In this document: piece by piece, positions 56,214 to 60,000 of the stretch
How the letters are laid out: each line of letters opens with the position of its first letter
How positions within the stretch are numbered: the first letter of the stretch is position 1
Assembly (NCBI GenBank): GCA_051294905.1
Contig: CM119372.1
Coordinates: forward strand, 30,382,001-30,442,000
Length of the DNA stretch: 60,000 bases
Reading direction: 5' to 3'
Origin: Botryllus schlosseri
Lineage: Eukaryota
Translations under genes and position numbers: made by a program
Notes under the pieces: generated by a model
Told to the model about the DNA's origin: nothing
What the model saw: only the letters and a program-made list of their open reading frames with translations
Databases searched by the model: none

Positions 56214-56696
56214 TCAATGATATCGTTGATCGTTATTGCGTCGATTCGCGTGCTGAAATCCTCCAGATCGGTTGATGTTTCGAGGTACACCGCTTTGCTG
56301 CCATCCGACGCTGCGATCCGGGTTCTTGCGTTCGATCTGACCGTTTTGTTTGATGTAGCGATCACTGGCTTGTAGTATGTACGATACGAGCGGAAGGTCG
56401 GGATTAGGAACAACTACGCTGGGCGAATAGATGACGAATTCGTCAGCCGGATTCAGAGGTTGATAATGCTCGATCCCGTCGCGAGTATACGTAACGACCA
56501 AACCTCCTTCATGCTTCAGAGTGGCTCGATATTTCTGAATGGTCCCGTTAGTGGAATGTACAAAGAGTTGATCCGAGGTCAATTCTGCCCCATTCGAGGC
56601 TTCGATACGTAATTTTGTGATGTCATTAAAAAGATACAAGTCTTTTCTATAGGGCCCTTGGGGCAGAATAGTATCTCCACGGATTGCTAGACTCAT
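56214..56696 (-). CDS. Polinton ORF, 160 aa, unknown; possible divergent ADP-ribosyltransferase fold
   Basis: Likely start MSLAIRGD right after acceptor tttcttttcaaag; AATAAA on - at 56192-56197; motifs IRGD, GPYRKDLYL, DEFVIYSPS. Confidence 0.65.
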   Translation of the reverse strand: MSLAIRGDTILPQGPYRKDLYLFNDITKLRIEASNGAELTSDQLFVHSTNGTIQKYRATLKHEGGLVVTYTRDGIEHYQPLNPADEFVIYSPSVVVPNPDLPLVSYILQASDRYIKQNGQIERKNPDRSVGWQQSGVPRNINRSGGFQHANRRNNDQRYH

Positions 56697-56712
56697 TCTT
56701 TGAAAAGAAATA

Positions 56713-57294
56713 TCAAACATAAGTACAACAGCCATCACGCAATTTCACCTCGCCATCAAATTTAGTCGAGCCTCTTCTTATATTAGGTGTCGCATAACAG
56801 ACATTACGAATATATTGCAACCCCTTGCGCTTTATGAGAAAAGGACACGTAGGATAAAACTTTGCATGCTCGAACCAGGGGTCATCGCACGCCAACCAAT
56901 TTTGAAACAACCCTCCACATGAGAAACACTTTAAATGATCCTTATAGCCCAAATAGAACAATCCACAGTCTGCGAGCTCGGCTCCAGAGGTATTGATATT
57001 ATCCGGCCACCGCATAAATGTGCTTAGTCTACGAGCATAGCGTACCATGTTATAGAAAACAGGATCATTCAACGGGGAGACAGACACATCTCTATGCTTC
57101 GCATAGCATTCATAAATATTTTCCCCTCTGTTATTTATCATAGCTTGGTACTGTTCAATGGGACCCGTCCGAGTTTCATCTTCGCTTATTTCTATGCTAC
57201 TTGTGGAACCGATGCAAGCGCAGTTGAATGTGGCATAATTTGTAGGATCCACACTACGCATAGGTAGCGAATCGCTTTGATCAATGTTCGACAT
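56713..57294 (-). CDS. Single-BIR-domain inhibitor-of-apoptosis-like protein (193 aa, no RING)
   Basis: RRLSTFMRWP...LADCGLFYLGYKDHLKCFSCGGLFQNWLACDDPWFEHAKFYPTCPFL: canonical BIR with CX2CX16HX6C; intronless. Confidence 0.93.
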   Translation of the reverse strand: MSNIDQSDSLPMRSVDPTNYATFNCACIGSTSSIEISEDETRTGPIEQYQAMINNRGENIYECYAKHRDVSVSPLNDPVFYNMVRYARRLSTFMRWPDNINTSGAELADCGLFYLGYKDHLKCFSCGGLFQNWLACDDPWFEHAKFYPTCPFLIKRKGLQYIRNVCYATPNIRRGSTKFDGEVKLRDGCCTYV

Positions 57295-57329
57295 TGCTAT
57301 CCGAATTGATATACTCTCATGATCAGTAT

Positions 57330-57562
57330 GCTTTATATAGATATTAAGCTATGCACCATTGAAAAATGTGCTTGGTACCGATAGAATGATAGGCCCCGAG
57401 GTCGTATCACGGAAATTAGAACGTCGACTGCTCACAGAAAAAGACACGTAGCTCATATCCGATCCTGGTACGTGTTATCAATAATTAGAATGCTAGTAAG
57501 AATGCCACGAGTACAATCACGCGCTCTCCGCATGTCAAGCGCATGTAGTTCACTATATAAGA
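57330..57562. promoter_or_regulatory. Divergent promoter with two TATA boxes
   Basis: TATATAAA on - at about 57332-57339 (about 38 nt before the BIR ATG) and TATATAA on + at 57554-57560 (about 40 nt before ATG 57600). Confidence 0.6.
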
Positions 57563-57563
57563 G

Positions 57564-58835
57564 ATGGTCGAATCCGATCTAAACTATACCGCAAAAAGGA
57601 TGTCGACAATGGAGAAAGCAAGTGACGTAGTTAGCGAATCAACAACTATGATTCCTGATAATCAAGCAGATACATTACCGATTGGTGATTTCGATTCCGA
57701 TGTCGATGCAGAATTGATCGAAGTTACGATTGCAGCTGAAAAGAGTAAAGAGGCGGAAGCTAGTGATGATGACGTAACAATTATTGATGAGGCAGTGGCC
57801 AAATCTGATGAGGCTCCCTCAGCTGACGTGATGACACCAATCAATATCGGTATACCACGACCGGAGCCAGTCGGACCTAAACCTAAGCGTAGACTCGACT
57901 TTGATAAGAGCATACTACCAATTGGTGTTCAATTTACACCTCCACAGAGTACTGATAACTCGACAGCTGGGACCAGCGCTCAAAGCCCGCCTCACTCACC
58001 GATCATCGCCCCATGGAGAGTTTATTCGTCCCCTTTTCGCAATAAGCGACGTCGTATCGCTAATAACGTATTGGACGAGGAAAAGTTTGATGGTCTGATT
58101 TATAATTTGGATTACCCTCTACTTACGATTGATGATGGTGTACTATTTTTCCGTTCTCTTGAGCAGAATATCGAGGAGGTGTTGTTCGTTGATCGAGAAC
58201 GGAGCCCTAATTTTCTCCGGGCTGTGTTCATTATCACTCTAATGGAGGGTCATATGCATAAGAAATATTTTTCGCCTCACTTCTTTATAGAAGGCAAAAA
58301 TCAAACAGGGAAAGAAGTGTTGATCGATTTGTTGCTCTCTGATGATATCGCCAACTTCCTAGATCCTTTTCATCCGAATCTAGAGGCATTCAAATTTCAC
58401 AGTACCGAGAAATCTATTTCAGTGATGCGCAATTGCGGGTCTCTATTTTTCGATAACAAGATGTTGCAGGAAGCCATTATGTACGTTCATCGCAATCCTT
58501 TGCAGTCTGCTTACGGACAAGTAAAGCCGTCGTCGTTTTGGCTCGTATCTGAAATTCAGAATGGTAGTGATGTTATGTTACGCAATTTGGGAGGGATGTT
58601 TCAATCTAGCACAGTGATTATTCGCTTTGGTAATCAGTGTTATCCTTGCTACTTGCCTGAGATGAATAAGCATGCTCGCCGTAAAATCATACATGATATA
58701 TTTGCTCGTACATTCATACCGTCAGATTCCAAATTTGAGAGTGATTCCTCTTATGTTGAAAACGATGTGCATGCACGTGAATTTTATGCCAAATTCGATG
58801 AGCTCAAACGGCAGTACAATGACTGGTATATTTGA
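57564..58835 (+). CDS. Polinton ORF, 411-423 aa; acidic/disordered N-half with cyclin RxL, SIM, NLS and CDK-site motifs, plus an unknown globular C-half
   Basis: Long intact ORF; PKPKRRLDF, DDDVTIIDE, SPFRNKRRR. The true start is probably ATG 57600 given the TATA position. Confidence 0.8.
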   Translation: MVESDLNYTAKRMSTMEKASDVVSESTTMIPDNQADTLPIGDFDSDVDAELIEVTIAAEKSKEAEASDDDVTIIDEAVAKSDEAPSADVMTPINIGIPRPEPVGPKPKRRLDFDKSILPIGVQFTPPQSTDNSTAGTSAQSPPHSPIIAPWRVYSSPFRNKRRRIANNVLDEEKFDGLIYNLDYPLLTIDDGVLFFRSLEQNIEEVLFVDRERSPNFLRAVFIITLMEGHMHKKYFSPHFFIEGKNQTGKEVLIDLLLSDDIANFLDPFHPNLEAFKFHSTEKSISVMRNCGSLFFDNKMLQEAIMYVHRNPLQSAYGQVKPSSFWLVSEIQNGSDVMLRNLGGMFQSSTVIIRFGNQCYPCYLPEMNKHARRKIIHDIFARTFIPSDSKFESDSSYVENDVHAREFYAKFDELKRQYNDWYI

Positions 58836-58854
58836 TTTGTTTTCTCAGATTAAT

Positions 58855-59190
58855 ATGGAACCTTATAATTGTGGTAAAGATCTAAATATGTTGCTACAAC
58901 AATACGGTGCGGGAGACACAAGACGTACGCGAGATGCTACGACCGCTACCTTTGAAGGTTTCGTTGACGATGATATCAAGAGAGTTGCTACTTGGCGCAA
59001 AATGGTCTCATTGGAAGGATATGGGGAATGGCAAAAAGATTTTCTCGTTATAGCAAAAAATGTGCTTAAAGATATCGATAAAGTTGCTCCCAACGCTGAT
59101 GAACTGCGTAACTTAGAAAATATCAAATTCCTGTTCCTTTATGAAGCTTTCAAGTGTAAATTGCGACTGAAATATGGAATAAATTTATGA
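58855..59190 (+). CDS. Polinton small ORF, 111 aa, unknown
   Basis: MEPYNCGKDL...KYGINL*; ATG follows acceptor tttgttttctcag (58848). Confidence 0.65.
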   Translation: MEPYNCGKDLNMLLQQYGAGDTRRTRDATTATFEGFVDDDIKRVATWRKMVSLEGYGEWQKDFLVIAKNVLKDIDKVAPNADELRNLENIKFLFLYEAFKCKLRLKYGINL

Positions 59191-59223
59191 ATGTGTATTT
59201 TTGCAGAATATACTTAAAAATAT

Positions 59224-60000
59224 ATGGCTCGTCGAAGACGCTACGAGGAAGATGTTAGCTTCATCATCGATGAATCGCTCGGTTTTGATAACGACGCAAC
59301 AGAGGTTTTGCAATCGCACTCCAACTCGATTATCGATTCCGAATGGATTAACAGCAGGAGGATTGCAAGGGGTGCAAGAGAGGCGATCAATGTACGTCTG
59401 ATGGGGAGAGGTATGAATGATATTCATGCGCATATGTCATCGATATACCCGAGAAGATTGCGACAATTCAAAGTGAACTATGCATATGGCTTCTTGCTGT
59501 TTAATCGAGAGACGGAAAGACATAGCTATTTTCATCCACAATCAACCCATGCTGTTTTGGATCTCCCGAGACCTATACTTTCACGGGAGGACTTTGATCG
59601 TTTCATCAACGAAATCGATTTATCAGCTGCTTACAAGCAAGCGAGACAAGCGAGACCGGACACTAAGTTTTATTGCGTTGCTATATTACATATTCAATTT
59701 TTCTTGTACGAAATGCCCCGAGTTTTATTGGGCTGCCCTACCGCATCGATATCTAAGGAACTATCAAACTGTCGTTATATAAGAACGTTTATTCGAACTA
59801 GACGTGGAGAAGCGATTAACGATTCGCTATGCCTCTTCCGTTGTTTATCCCAATTCATCAAGAAAAAACGAGACGAAAAGCACGTCGCACAATTGGCATC
59901 TCAATTCCATGAACGTTACCGTATCCCTATTGATGACGGTGTACCGCTCGATGAACTAAGCAAAGTCGAGGAATGTTTTCACGTAAAGATACTTGTTTAT
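59224..60000 (+). CDS. Probable protein-primed family B DNA polymerase, N-terminal region (5' part only; not in the ORF track)
   Basis: 259 open codons to the window end. FKVNYAYGFLLFNRET, ARPDTKF, DSLCLFRCLS and GVPLDELSKVEECFHVKILVY resemble the N-terminus of Maverick/Polinton pPolB. Catalytic motifs are not within the window. Confidence 0.72.
   Translation, partial: MARRRRYEEDVSFIIDESLGFDNDATEVLQSHSNSIIDSEWINSRRIARGAREAINVRLMGRGMNDIHAHMSSIYPRRLRQFKVNYAYGFLLFNRETERHSYFHPQSTHAVLDLPRPILSREDFDRFINEIDLSAAYKQARQARPDTKFYCVAILHIQFFLYEMPRVLLGCPTASISKELSNCRYIRTFIRTRRGEAINDSLCLFRCLSQFIKKKRDEKHVAQLASQFHERYRIPIDDGVPLDELSKVEECFHVKILVY

Follow-up and report, generated by a model that had tools for sequence, protein, structure and literature searches.

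Candidate splice acceptors ahead of three downstream genes in a tunicate Polinton

How are genes expressed that follow one another on the same strand with almost no DNA between them? The right end of the window, the whole 60,000-nt stretch of contig CM119372.1 that was analyzed, raises this question. A complete Polinton/Maverick begins there and continues past the window; it is 17.5 kb long, is bounded by TIRs and a 6-bp TSD, and exists in at least 25 near-identical copies. The identification as a Polinton is borne out by the TIRs, the TSD and a gene set of polymerase, ATPase, integrase and capsid candidate. The best explanation, tentative as a whole, is that acceptors lie within TATA-driven units and have the host spliced leader (SL) as their partner. 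Positions beyond the window are given as window-extended coordinates.

55785-73320 (window-extended coordinates), whole Polinton, 17,536 bp
55779..55784, left copy of the 6-bp TSD, CTTACT; its right counterpart is at extended coordinate 73321, directly after the element
55785..55977, left TIR, starting AGTAGTAAGG; the match to the right end covers about 112-127 nt
55850-55977, sub-terminal array of CGCC(C/T)ATTGCCACATCATC-like repeats, after the left TIR

One strand carries a Cellulose_synt exon and, 3.3 kb from it, a GH6 exon, which together represent a CesA-GH6 fusion gene. Because such a fusion is stated to be tunicate-specific (excerpts of PMC7464555), the host is a tunicate, and the tunicate setting assumed for SL operons is confirmed: this lineage has SL trans-splicing and nearly gap-less operons. 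Five element families were compared, that of the window copy and the 72%, 53%, 40% and 35% families; G1 identity to the window copy in these other families is 72, 53, 32 and 32%. The genes are as follows.

56214..56696, minus strand, downstream cistron of the minus unit, 160 aa
56713..57294, minus strand, first cistron of the minus unit, 193 aa, BIR (inhibitor of apoptosis) domain, PF00653, E 5.3e-18
57600..58835, plus strand, G1, first cistron of the plus unit, 411 aa
58855..59190, plus strand, G2, second plus cistron, 111 aa, sub-threshold DUF7950 match only
59224 to extended 63102, plus strand, G3, family-B DNA polymerase, 1292 aa
Extended 63106-63723, A32-like ATPase (G6)
Extended 63759-64166, G7, with an intron at 64048-64098
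Extended 64159-64497, G8
Extended 64485-65483, rve+chromo integrase
Extended 65437-65646, small ORF
Between the small ORF and the capsid candidate, G10 to G12
Extended 67570-68847, DJR-like capsid candidate (G13)
Extended 68844-69299, G14; from there to the right TIR the DNA is repetitive and non-coding

The PF00653 match of the 193-aa protein scores 65.7 bits against a cut-off of 22.9, and a family search with the 160-aa protein gave no match. The latter begins with MS(L/I)AIRG in all five families. Since this N-terminus is kept throughout and the upstream in-frame ATGs (56735 and 56720) are not conserved, ATG 56696 is, on comparative grounds, the true start of the minus-strand downstream gene. 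G1 is placed at 57600 because most copies start at the homologous ATG (411-413 aa); the alternative ATG 57564 lies only 3 nt past the plus-strand TATA box. Sequence searches of Pfam, PHROG and PDB with G1 gave no match, and its language-model look-alikes, DUF5906/VapE-like, are a lead only. Polymerase homologues share a MARRRRY-type start. Some other ORFs of the element overlap, either as ATGA or with ATGnnTGA as stop and start.

The initial annotation described three junctions in which a stop codon is followed by a short pyrimidine tract, an AG and an ATG, and placed a TATA box at each first cistron. All three junctions are present where it had put them, as are both TATA boxes, which are conserved.

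56697..56712, minus strand, minus junction gap, 16 nt, tatttcttttcaaAGa; stop TGA 56715-56713, AG 56699-56698, ATG 56696
58836..58854, plus strand, J1 gap, 19 nt, tttgttttctcAGattaat; stop TGA 58833-58835, AG 58847-58848, ATG 58855
59191..59223, plus strand, J2 gap, 33 nt; stop TGA 59188-59190, AG 59205-59206, ATG 59224
59178..59183, plus strand, AATAAA hexamer; the G2 stop follows after 5 nt, the CA of the J2 CAG after 21 nt
57554-57561, plus strand, TATA box TATATAAG, with ATG 57600 lying 46 nt downstream
57340-57332, minus strand, TATA box TATATAAAG, with ATG 57294 lying 46 nt downstream

The AG of the minus junction follows a T-rich tract and lies 1 nt before ATG 56696. At J1 and J2 a T-rich tract with CAG lies 6 nt ahead of ATG 58855 and 17 nt ahead of the polymerase ATG 59224. 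The plus TATA box has TA or CA at +29..32 and occurs in four of the five families, the 35% family being without it; the minus box is found at a similar place in all five (by eye).

Across families the gaps ahead of G2 and the polymerase gene are unalignable and 19 to 178 nt long. A T-run with CAG stands 6-9 nt before the homologous G2 ATG in 5/5 families, in J1 gaps of 19 to 159 nt, and 9-17 nt before the homologous polymerase start, again in 5/5. At the minus junction a T-rich tract with AG stands 1-8 nt before the ATG in 4/5 families; in the 72% family this junction is without any AG, though both ORFs are intact, which counts against the acceptor reading. Among near-identical copies, the minus-junction AG is kept in all 27 recovered, and the J2 T-run and AG in 29/29, which have 18 haplotypes in the J2 gap. 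The gene's own ATG is the first after the AG at 13 of 14 sites (by eye), the exception being J2 of the 53% family, where another AG follows. All four sites of the 35% and 40% families have CTAAT or CTGAC 17-28 nt ahead of the AG; a CTRAY branch-like motif was found at none of the five sites in the window copy and the 72% and 53% families, which counts against the acceptor reading. The 40% family also has a degenerate upstream duplicate of J1, without AG and without CTAAT.

TTTT-N0-4-AG occurs 15 times in the 11,735-nt plus-strand gene block of the window copy, four of them within 20 nt upstream of the 11 downstream starts, versus about 0.28 expected (own arithmetic). The minus-strand unit, of 1,081 nt, has a single occurrence, and this coincides with the junction. 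With the five families pooled, the motif precedes 12 of 43 downstream starts versus 2.24 expected (binomial P = 1.3e-6, for a motif defined after seeing the data and families that are related). The excess comes entirely from G2 and G3. Outside these two plus junctions the motif is found at 3/34 starts, about the chance level and none conserved, and the claim of a splice acceptor in every intercistronic gap fails. Across the deeply diverged families the three motifs are conserved, and no other junction of the element keeps one.

The host spliceosome most likely processes element transcripts, because G7 has a conserved intron of predicted GT-AG type. This is 51-54 nt long, in phase 1, with a TCTAAC branch site, and its removal restores a conserved C-terminal peptide in 4/5 families. 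Its acceptor, tctgttttAG, resembles the junction motifs; its donors are GTATAA, GTAAAA, GTAAAC and GTGAAT. Two bulk RNA-seq runs under the species label, sampled at about 6 reads in 100, cover the element at a depth of at most 1.23 except for one stretch that belongs to another locus; at this depth no joint or loose end is listed at 56697, 58849 or 59207. A search for the host SL RNA gene with the Ciona SL plus GT returned 55 matches versus 37 for the reversed control and did not find the gene; the recurrent matches are a dispersed repeat.

The conserved motifs suggest splicing at these sites, possibly with SL as the partner. That the three motifs are functional 3' splice acceptors, for splicing of any kind, is somewhat probable; SL trans-splicing specifically at the three AGs is possible, at rather less than even chances. 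There would be two divergent units, BIR to the 160-aa gene on the minus strand and G1 to G2 to polymerase on the plus strand. RNA polymerase II would start about 30 nt past each TATA box and transcribe through the cistrons, and the T-tract/CAG ahead of each downstream ORF would be used by the host spliceosome. The host SL would be joined to the acceptor, as with unpaired tunicate acceptors, a proposal made because no paired donor is evident. Each downstream ORF would gain a capped, short 5' UTR with its own ATG first. [quoted passage not shown] The remaining genes would rely on embedded core promoters of TATA+CA type, on a single cis-spliced intron and on stop codons that overlap start codons; that these other downstream cistrons do without an acceptor-like motif counts against the acceptor reading. 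If it is true, a virus-like transposon would use host RNA splicing to express tightly packed genes.

Each downstream gene may instead have a TATA-less core promoter, in which the T-rich tract and CA(G) form an initiator with the start at CA, and the resulting mRNAs are nested and share 3' ends. This is rather unlikely. Nested 3'-coterminal transcripts are made by many nuclear DNA viruses, and herpesviruses and baculoviruses embed the promoters of such units in upstream ORFs. G6, G7 and G13 are similar, having conserved TATA-like boxes within or overlapping the upstream ORF end with CA 29-31 nt downstream, and these core-promoter-like signals favor the promoter reading. They also contradict the claim of the initial annotation that the gaps leave no room for promoters. 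Over the families, a box with CA/TA at +28..33 is found for G6 in 4/4, G7 in 5/5, G13 in 2/2 and G1 in 4/5. This spacing matches Ciona, where TATA lies at -32 to -29, CA/TA starts are preferred and T content peaks around start sites (excerpts of PMC4691747). In the 35% and 40% families the minus first cistron has TTTCAGTTC about 31 nt after its box (by eye), so a T-rich tract with CAG can be a start site in the Polinton; the 72% family minus junction, too, keeps a T-rich tract with CA. Unlike the herpesvirus and baculovirus cases and all inferred promoters of the element, however, the junction motifs have no TATA-like box at -33..-28 (0/14 sites in five families; none at J1 in any family). Looser box definitions give a TATA-like hexamer at -32 in 2/14 sites (by eye), J1 of the 53% family and J2 of the 35% family, which counts against the acceptor reading. 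Judged by sequence, the acceptor-motif sites are unlike the Polinton's TATA-type promoters. Nor does an initiator require the conserved G of CAG and a T-run of at least 4, and the CTAAT/CTGAC that the 35% and 40% families have at the distance of a branch point also speaks against this reading. Transcripts would have 5' UTRs of no more than 3-19 nt; in the window copy and the 53% family, the one at the minus junction would measure 3 nt. Under scanning rules, initiation behind so short a UTR is inefficient.

Alternatively, a short TATA-driven 5' leader exon could be cis-spliced to alternative acceptors before each downstream ATG, the upstream ORFs being removed as introns, as in adenovirus and adomavirus late units. 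We regard this as unlikely. The conserved acceptors behind the best explanation support this one too. In the adenovirus major late unit one promoter serves several ORFs, with an acceptor directly before each ATG. RNA-seq of the adomavirus LO4-LO8 'operon' likewise places an acceptor immediately upstream of each ATG (excerpts of bioRxiv 10.1101/341131), and adenoviruses have a morphogenetic module evolutionarily related to the Polinton one (PMC4028283 and PMC10328495), so that there is precedent among relatives of the virion module. The Polinton units share the single promoter, the several ORFs and the acceptor-like signal before downstream ATGs; unlike in those viruses, the genes concerned are replication-side (G2, polymerase) plus a small minus-strand gene, the capsid genes seem to be under their own TAAATA+CA promoter, and a conserved leader donor was not found in the Polinton families. 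In 4/5 families GT(A/G)A is found 17-22 nt past the G1 ATG (by eye), and it equals the G7 donors in quality, so the acceptors may not be unpaired; J2 of the 40% family has two acceptor copies with GTAATA between them, which could delimit a mini-exon. However, this candidate donor is weak and missing from the 53% family, GTRA is expected by chance in a 30-nt window about 1 time in 4 (own estimate), and its position inside G1 means that the leader would carry the G1 ATG. The minus-strand unit has no standout donor candidate, and no junction reads occur at the RNA-seq depth of at most 1.23. In tunicates, SL addition competes for acceptors that lack a strong donor (excerpts of PMC1488885).

Quite improbably, the motifs serve the upstream gene or translation and not splicing, either as U/GU-rich 3'-end signals or, on a polycistronic mRNA that stays unprocessed, as spacers allowing termination-reinitiation or leaky scanning. 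The AATAAA ahead of the J2 CAG may act as the poly(A) signal of the upstream mRNA, the GT-rich tgtgtatttttg is similar to a downstream element, and the ATGA and ATGnnTGA overlaps elsewhere look like translational coupling. The hexamer is kept in 27/29 near-identical copies, but it is AATATA in the 53% and 35% families; neither J1 nor, in 3/5 families, J2 conserves it. The motif also tracks the downstream ATG (6-17 nt) and not the upstream stop (13-160 nt), and reinitiation after ORFs of 411 or 193 aa is inefficient.

Chance, with AT-rich spacers happening to hold an AG, is very improbable and, by sequence comparison, is not the source of the three-junction motif: about 5% of arbitrary positions have the motif within 20 nt upstream, but it is kept at G2, G3 and the minus junction in 5/5, 5/5 and 4/5 families (the pooled P above) and in 27-29 of 27-29 copies despite the J2 haplotypes.

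The closest known systems to the preferred reading of SL-spliced acceptors are the SL operons of Ciona intestinalis and Oikopleura. The Polinton differs from them in being a mobile virus-like element and not a host gene cluster, and in having the signal at only 3 of about 13 same-strand junctions, the others having embedded promoters or overlaps; both the joining of SL and upstream poly(A) sites at the acceptor AGs are putative in it. Ciona operons have no intercistronic DNA, acceptors without a paired donor receive the SL by trans-splicing, and the acceptor AG doubles as the poly(A) site of the upstream mRNA, 16/18 junctions being without AATAAA (excerpts of PMC1488885). The same source supports the likenesses: same-strand, almost gap-free cistrons behind one upstream promoter, a T-rich acceptor with AG a few nt before the downstream ATG, an upstream AATAAA that is often absent, and the same host lineage.

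The stop/T-rich/AG/ATG junctions lie in a complete Polinton/Maverick of 17,536 bp (55785-73320 in extended coordinates, that is, window numbering continued past 60,000), and the window ends inside it. Terminal inverted repeats of at least 112 nt run from 55785 onward and from 73320 backward, their first bases being AGTAGTAAGG. Polinton/Maverick ends follow a 5'-AG...CT-3' rule, to which the ends of this element conform. A 6-bp target-site duplication, CTTACT, is present on both flanks. Just left of the insertion, at 55084-55542 (+), is a host ORF without a Pfam match that encodes a signal peptide and a short collagen-like Gly-X-Y stretch.

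Genes of the element
56713-57294, minus strand: BIR/IAP protein, first cistron of the minus-strand unit
After the BIR/IAP gene, minus strand: 160-aa protein, second cistron
Plus strand: G1 (411 aa), then G2 (111 aa)
After G2, plus strand: putative family-B polymerase (G3), 1292 aa; motif matches, Pfam sub-threshold only
Plus strand: A32-like ATPase (G6) of the FtsK/A32-like packaging type; PF04665, E 8.6e-9, 35.7 bits vs cut-off 22.8
Between ATPase and integrase, plus strand: G7, G8
Plus strand: integrase, rve and chromodomain; PF00665, E 4.4e-13, 49.8 bits vs cut-off 32.6
65437-65646 (extended), plus strand: small ORF, 69 aa, sharing 47 nt with the end of the integrase and an ATGA with the start of G10
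Plus strand: G10 to G12, then a weak DJR-like capsid candidate (G13), then G14

The polymerase ORF contains regular-expression matches FDFES (367), KTIGNSAFG (1019) and TDTDS (1122), which fit Exo I, Pol B and Pol C of family-B polymerases. Its only Pfam hit, Pox_F12L, is sub-threshold (17.3 bits vs cut-off 25), and it matched nothing in PDB or PHROG. The capsid candidate, a 425-aa ORF, scores 15.2 bits against DJR-like_dom, below the cut-off of 27, and had no match in a PDB sequence search. Pfam gave no adenain-like cysteine protease among the remaining ORFs, two of which were also without a PHROG match. In all, PHROG gave no match for G1, the 160-aa gene, G10, G11 or the capsid candidate. 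Atlas look-alikes of G1 are DUF5906/VapE-like (score 0.90), which is a lead only. The C-terminal part of the small ORF (KELW...GYMLP) is kept in two diverged families, those at 35% and 40%, so the "159-nt gap" is probably coding.

In the genome searched (495 Mb, 219 contigs), at least 25 copies have a G1 92-100% identical to that of the window copy, most with open frames, and further families occur at 72, 53 and about 32-41% G1 identity; the four compared here are called the 72%, 53%, 35% and 40% families. One member of the 40% family is at C2:30490911-30491573, on the same chromosome about 50 kb downstream of the window's element, with 41% G1 identity over the matched part. ORFs the size of the BIR gene are found at the same place in the 72% and 53% families, and shorter ORFs in the 35% and 40% families. 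Outside this genome, a G1 profile gave 78 pattern matches in viral_contigs and 223 in metagenome_contigs, with none confirmed in either.

All three junctions read exactly as the initial annotation described them. On the minus strand, the TGA of the BIR gene (56715-56713) is followed by a 16-nt gap with tatttcttttcaaAG, one base and the ATG at 56696. At the G1/G2 junction (J1, plus strand), TGA 58833-58835 is followed by tttgttttctcAG, attaat and ATG 58855; at the G2/polymerase junction (J2, plus strand), TGA 59188-59190 is followed by atgtgtatttttgcAG, 17 nt and ATG 59224. These gaps of 16, 19 and 33 nt lie behind TATA boxes at 57340 (-) and 57554 (+). The boxes claimed for the two first cistrons are indeed there (TATATAAG, 57554-57561, plus strand; TATATAAAG, 57340-57332, minus strand), and we infer that each unit probably has one promoter for these cistrons. 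The N-terminus MS(L/I)AIRG of the 160-aa gene product is common to five families and in-frame ATGs further upstream are not conserved, so 56696 is the real start of this gene. On the plus strand, the start of the first ORF is placed at 57600, since ATG 57564 follows the TATA box by only 3 nt and in most copies the ORF begins at the ATG after it (411-413 aa).

A strict pyrimidine-count scorer for 3' splice sites (at least 11 of 13 Y, plus YAG) was dropped, as the G residues in the tracts made it pass over all three sites. The T-run definition that replaced it, TTTT-N0-4-AG, is thus post hoc, made after seeing the data, and the families to which it was applied are related. The plus-strand block of the window copy (11,735 nt) has 15 occurrences of this motif. 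Four of them precede a downstream start, of which there are 11, by no more than 20 nt (0.28 expected by our own arithmetic), and a fifth is the acceptor of an intron. The 1,081-nt minus-strand unit has the motif once, at the junction. One representative of each of the four other families was compared, and the comparison covers the whole gene block in the 35% and 40% families and the first 10 kb in the other two. In the pooled families the motif is present at 12 of 43 downstream starts vs 2.24 expected (P = 1.3e-6). A T-run with CAG is found 6-9 nt upstream of the G2 start in all five families and 9-17 nt upstream of the polymerase start, also in all five (four of four in the pooled test, and the 72% family seen separately). 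The remaining starts have it in 3 of 34 cases, about chance. The J1 and J2 gaps vary from 19 to 178 nt across families and are otherwise unalignable; the signal keeps its place relative to the ATG and not to the stop before it. Conservation of the AG motifs in related elements, whose absence would have refuted the proposal of the initial annotation, extends to every family at J1 and J2 and to four of five at the minus-strand junction, where the 72% family is without the AG, which counts against acceptors. Among 29 near-identical loci J2 has 18 gap haplotypes and the T-run and AG are kept in all 29; at J1 and the minus-strand junction they are kept in all 27 recovered near-identical copies. CTAAT or CTGAC is present 17-28 nt upstream of the AG at all four junction sites of the 35% and 40% families, and a branch motif of this type at none of the five sites of the other three families.

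Three later genes have core-promoter-like sequences embedded in the ends of upstream ORFs and kept in all families read.

Core-promoter-like sequences of later genes
63049-63056 (extended): TATAAAAG in the polymerase C-terminal codons, CA at +31, for the ATPase (G6); 4/4 families
63721-63726 (extended): TAAATA overlapping the ATPase stop, CA at +30/31, for G7; 5/5 families
67518-67523 (extended): TAAATA overlapping the G12 stop, CA at +29/30, for the capsid candidate (G13); 2/2 families

The spacing from box to CA agrees with Ciona, where TATA boxes are placed at -32 to -29 and transcription starts preferentially at CA/TA (PMC4691747). For the element, start sites are predicted at about 57583 (+), about 57310 (-), 63080, 63752 and 67547 (extended). 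The sequence at the ATPase stop also contains an AATAAA, which could act as a poly(A) signal as well. In the families read there is no conserved AG at the polymerase-to-ATPase junction (TAAtaaATG) or in the ATPase-to-G7 gap. G8, the integrase, the small ORF, G10, G11, G12 and G14 each begin within the preceding ORF (overlaps of ATGA, ATGnnTGA or 13-47 nt) and have no conserved motif. Two generalizations of the initial annotation thus fail for the element as a whole, namely that every intercistronic gap has an acceptor, since the remaining junctions have no conserved motif, and that the gaps leave no room for promoters, since the ATPase, G7 and capsid candidate genes have embedded TATA-like boxes with CA. 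By the TATA definition of the later genes, none of 14 acceptor-like sites has a box at -33..-28; looser hexamers are found at two of the 14.

G7 contains a GT-AG intron of 51 nt (extended 64048-64098, phase 1) with donor CAG|GTATAA, branch site TCTAAC and acceptor tctgttttAG. Its removal joins the G7 ORF to a 22-codon exon that encodes AILGAAIPVIGSLLG..., a conserved hydrophobic C-terminal peptide, and whose TGA overlaps the G8 ATG; the "88-nt gap" that follows the 103-aa ORF thus consists of intron and exon and is not intergenic DNA. Homologous intron sites are at loci L035, L036 and L037. Donor position (after the GGFLS codons), phase and exon-2 peptide agree in four of the five families, in which the intron measures 51-54 nt (the 53% family by eye); the 40% family copy looks degenerate here. 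There are earlier mentions of introns in Polinton genes. The conservation of this one makes it very likely that the host spliceosome processes transcripts of the element, and the junction motifs resemble this 3' splice site of the element's own.

The host is a tunicate, as the initial annotation had assumed: a Cellulose_synt exon at C9:15029126-15029521 (-) is 3.3 kb upstream of a same-strand GH6 exon (C9:15025585-15025875), and a GH6 domain at the cellulose synthase C-terminus is, in the account of PMC7464555, found in tunicates and no other organisms. A nematode host was rejected: a search for Col_cuticle_N gave no match, although its control gave none either. Tunicates trans-splice, and in Ciona the spliced leader (SL) is joined to unpaired acceptors (PMC1488885). 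Ciona operons, as described there, are without intercistronic DNA, with the upstream poly(A) site at the acceptor AG and 16 of 18 junctions without AATAAA.

SL trans-splicing at the three AGs has, in our judgement, somewhat less than an even chance of being correct. Polycistronic transcripts of the element would then be resolved by the host at acceptors before the downstream ATGs. The conserved T-run and CAG, their placement relative to the ATG, the likeness to the G7 acceptor and the branch-like motifs of two families argue for acceptors, as does the lack of a TATA box at promoter spacing, unlike at the element's own promoters. The SL is the tunicate default partner for unpaired acceptors, and the architecture matches that of Ciona operon junctions. 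Compared with a tunicate-type SL operon, the element has a 3' acceptor-like site before each downstream cistron at the three window junctions and is without one at its other junctions. Tentatively, with a likelihood of about a third, a recently active tunicate Polinton may have adapted its early or replication-side genes to the host operon machinery, keeping SL acceptors since the families diverged to about 32% protein identity.

The same sites could be TATA-less initiators, a rather doubtful reading to which we give about a quarter of the weight. T-rich sequence with CA is also the context of Ciona start sites, which speaks against acceptors, but initiation here would leave 5' UTRs of just 3-19 nt. 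It is unlikely, to a slightly greater degree, that the acceptors are joined in cis to a leader exon in the adenovirus/adomavirus pattern. Adomavirus RNA-seq, as presented in bioRxiv 10.1101/341131, has acceptors in use immediately upstream of ATGs, and the element has acceptor-like sites in that place at the level of sequence only. Weak GTRA donor candidates are found by eye 17-22 nt after the G1 ATG in four of five families, but their number is near chance by our own estimate and they are not conserved in the 53% family. Signals for 3' ends or translation are improbable, and chance is a very remote explanation.

An Rfam SL1 search of the host genome for an SL RNA gene gave no match, and neither did its control. 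The Ciona SL followed by GT, with up to two mismatches, has 55 matches vs 37 for the reversed control. Recurrent Ciona-SL-like variants were rejected as SL genes, as they sit in a dispersed repeat judged to be a transposable element. This repeat (85-89% identity, at least 1,309 candidate sites genome-wide, seen around position 1500 of loci L041, L043 and L044) has a 16-mer two mismatches from the Ciona SL, then GT, with the octamer ATTTGCAT upstream. These searches did not reveal an SL RNA gene of the host. The literature yielded no usable SL sequence from another ascidian.

No paper describing splice acceptors, SL trans-splicing or the resolution of operons in Polintons/Mavericks came up in a full-text search of open-access literature, in agreement with the initial annotation, whose author knew of none. 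How nuclear, Pol II-transcribed animal Polintons/Mavericks express their dozen or more tightly packed, partly overlapping genes is essentially undescribed. The arrangement hypothesized here would belong with known kinds, such as tunicate operons and adenovirus-type late units. The element provides a testable map with two divergent TATA units bearing conserved acceptor-like signals, three TATA+CA promoters in ORF ends, one conserved intron and several ATGA overlaps. Were the host SL joined to these acceptors, the element would be the first of a virus-like DNA type with a demonstrated dependence on SL trans-splicing. It would also be a mobile element tuned to lineage-specific RNA processing, a host-lineage-specific adaptation of Polinton expression that would bear on host range and movement between lineages. 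A leader encoded by the element would extend adenovirus/adomavirus late-unit logic to Polintons. Ordinary RNA work can reach the choice between SL and leader because the genome has no fewer than 25 near-identical copies whose reading frames are open.

Bulk RNA-seq runs X22 and X24 (same species label) were sampled at about 6 in 100 reads each, and 267 and 526 reads mapped, 263 and 525 of them only partly within the stretch. Outside 56135-56451 the depth on the element is at most 1.23; at this depth, far too low to bear on splicing, none of the three AGs has a joint or loose end. Nearly all reads fall at 56135-56451 (depth 22-41). They show fixed differences and continue at either end into dissimilar sequence, which places their origin at another locus. 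Their likely source is a paralogue or a chimeric transcript that is expressed elsewhere in the genome and includes the 3' half of the 160-aa gene. Run X19 (other species label) gave 0 reads, and contig set X1 (kind guessed) is even over all 30 bins and behaves like DNA.

About 4 kb inside the element (extended 69300-73200) is non-coding, with tandem repeats (period 433 x 2.1 copies; period 59 x 2.2 copies) and arrays of the sub-terminal ATTGCCACATCATC-type repeat. Genes for tRNA-Leu(taa), tRNA-Pro(tgg) and tRNA-Ala(tgc) are in or next to elements of the 35% and 40% families.

tRNA genes of the 35% and 40% elements
L037:2201-2284, minus strand
L045:5368-5439 and 6162-6234, minus strand
L046:6339-6410, minus strand

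The tRNA-Leu(taa) gene is inside the divergent promoter region, and the tRNA-Pro(tgg) and tRNA-Ala(tgc) genes are near the right end of the element.
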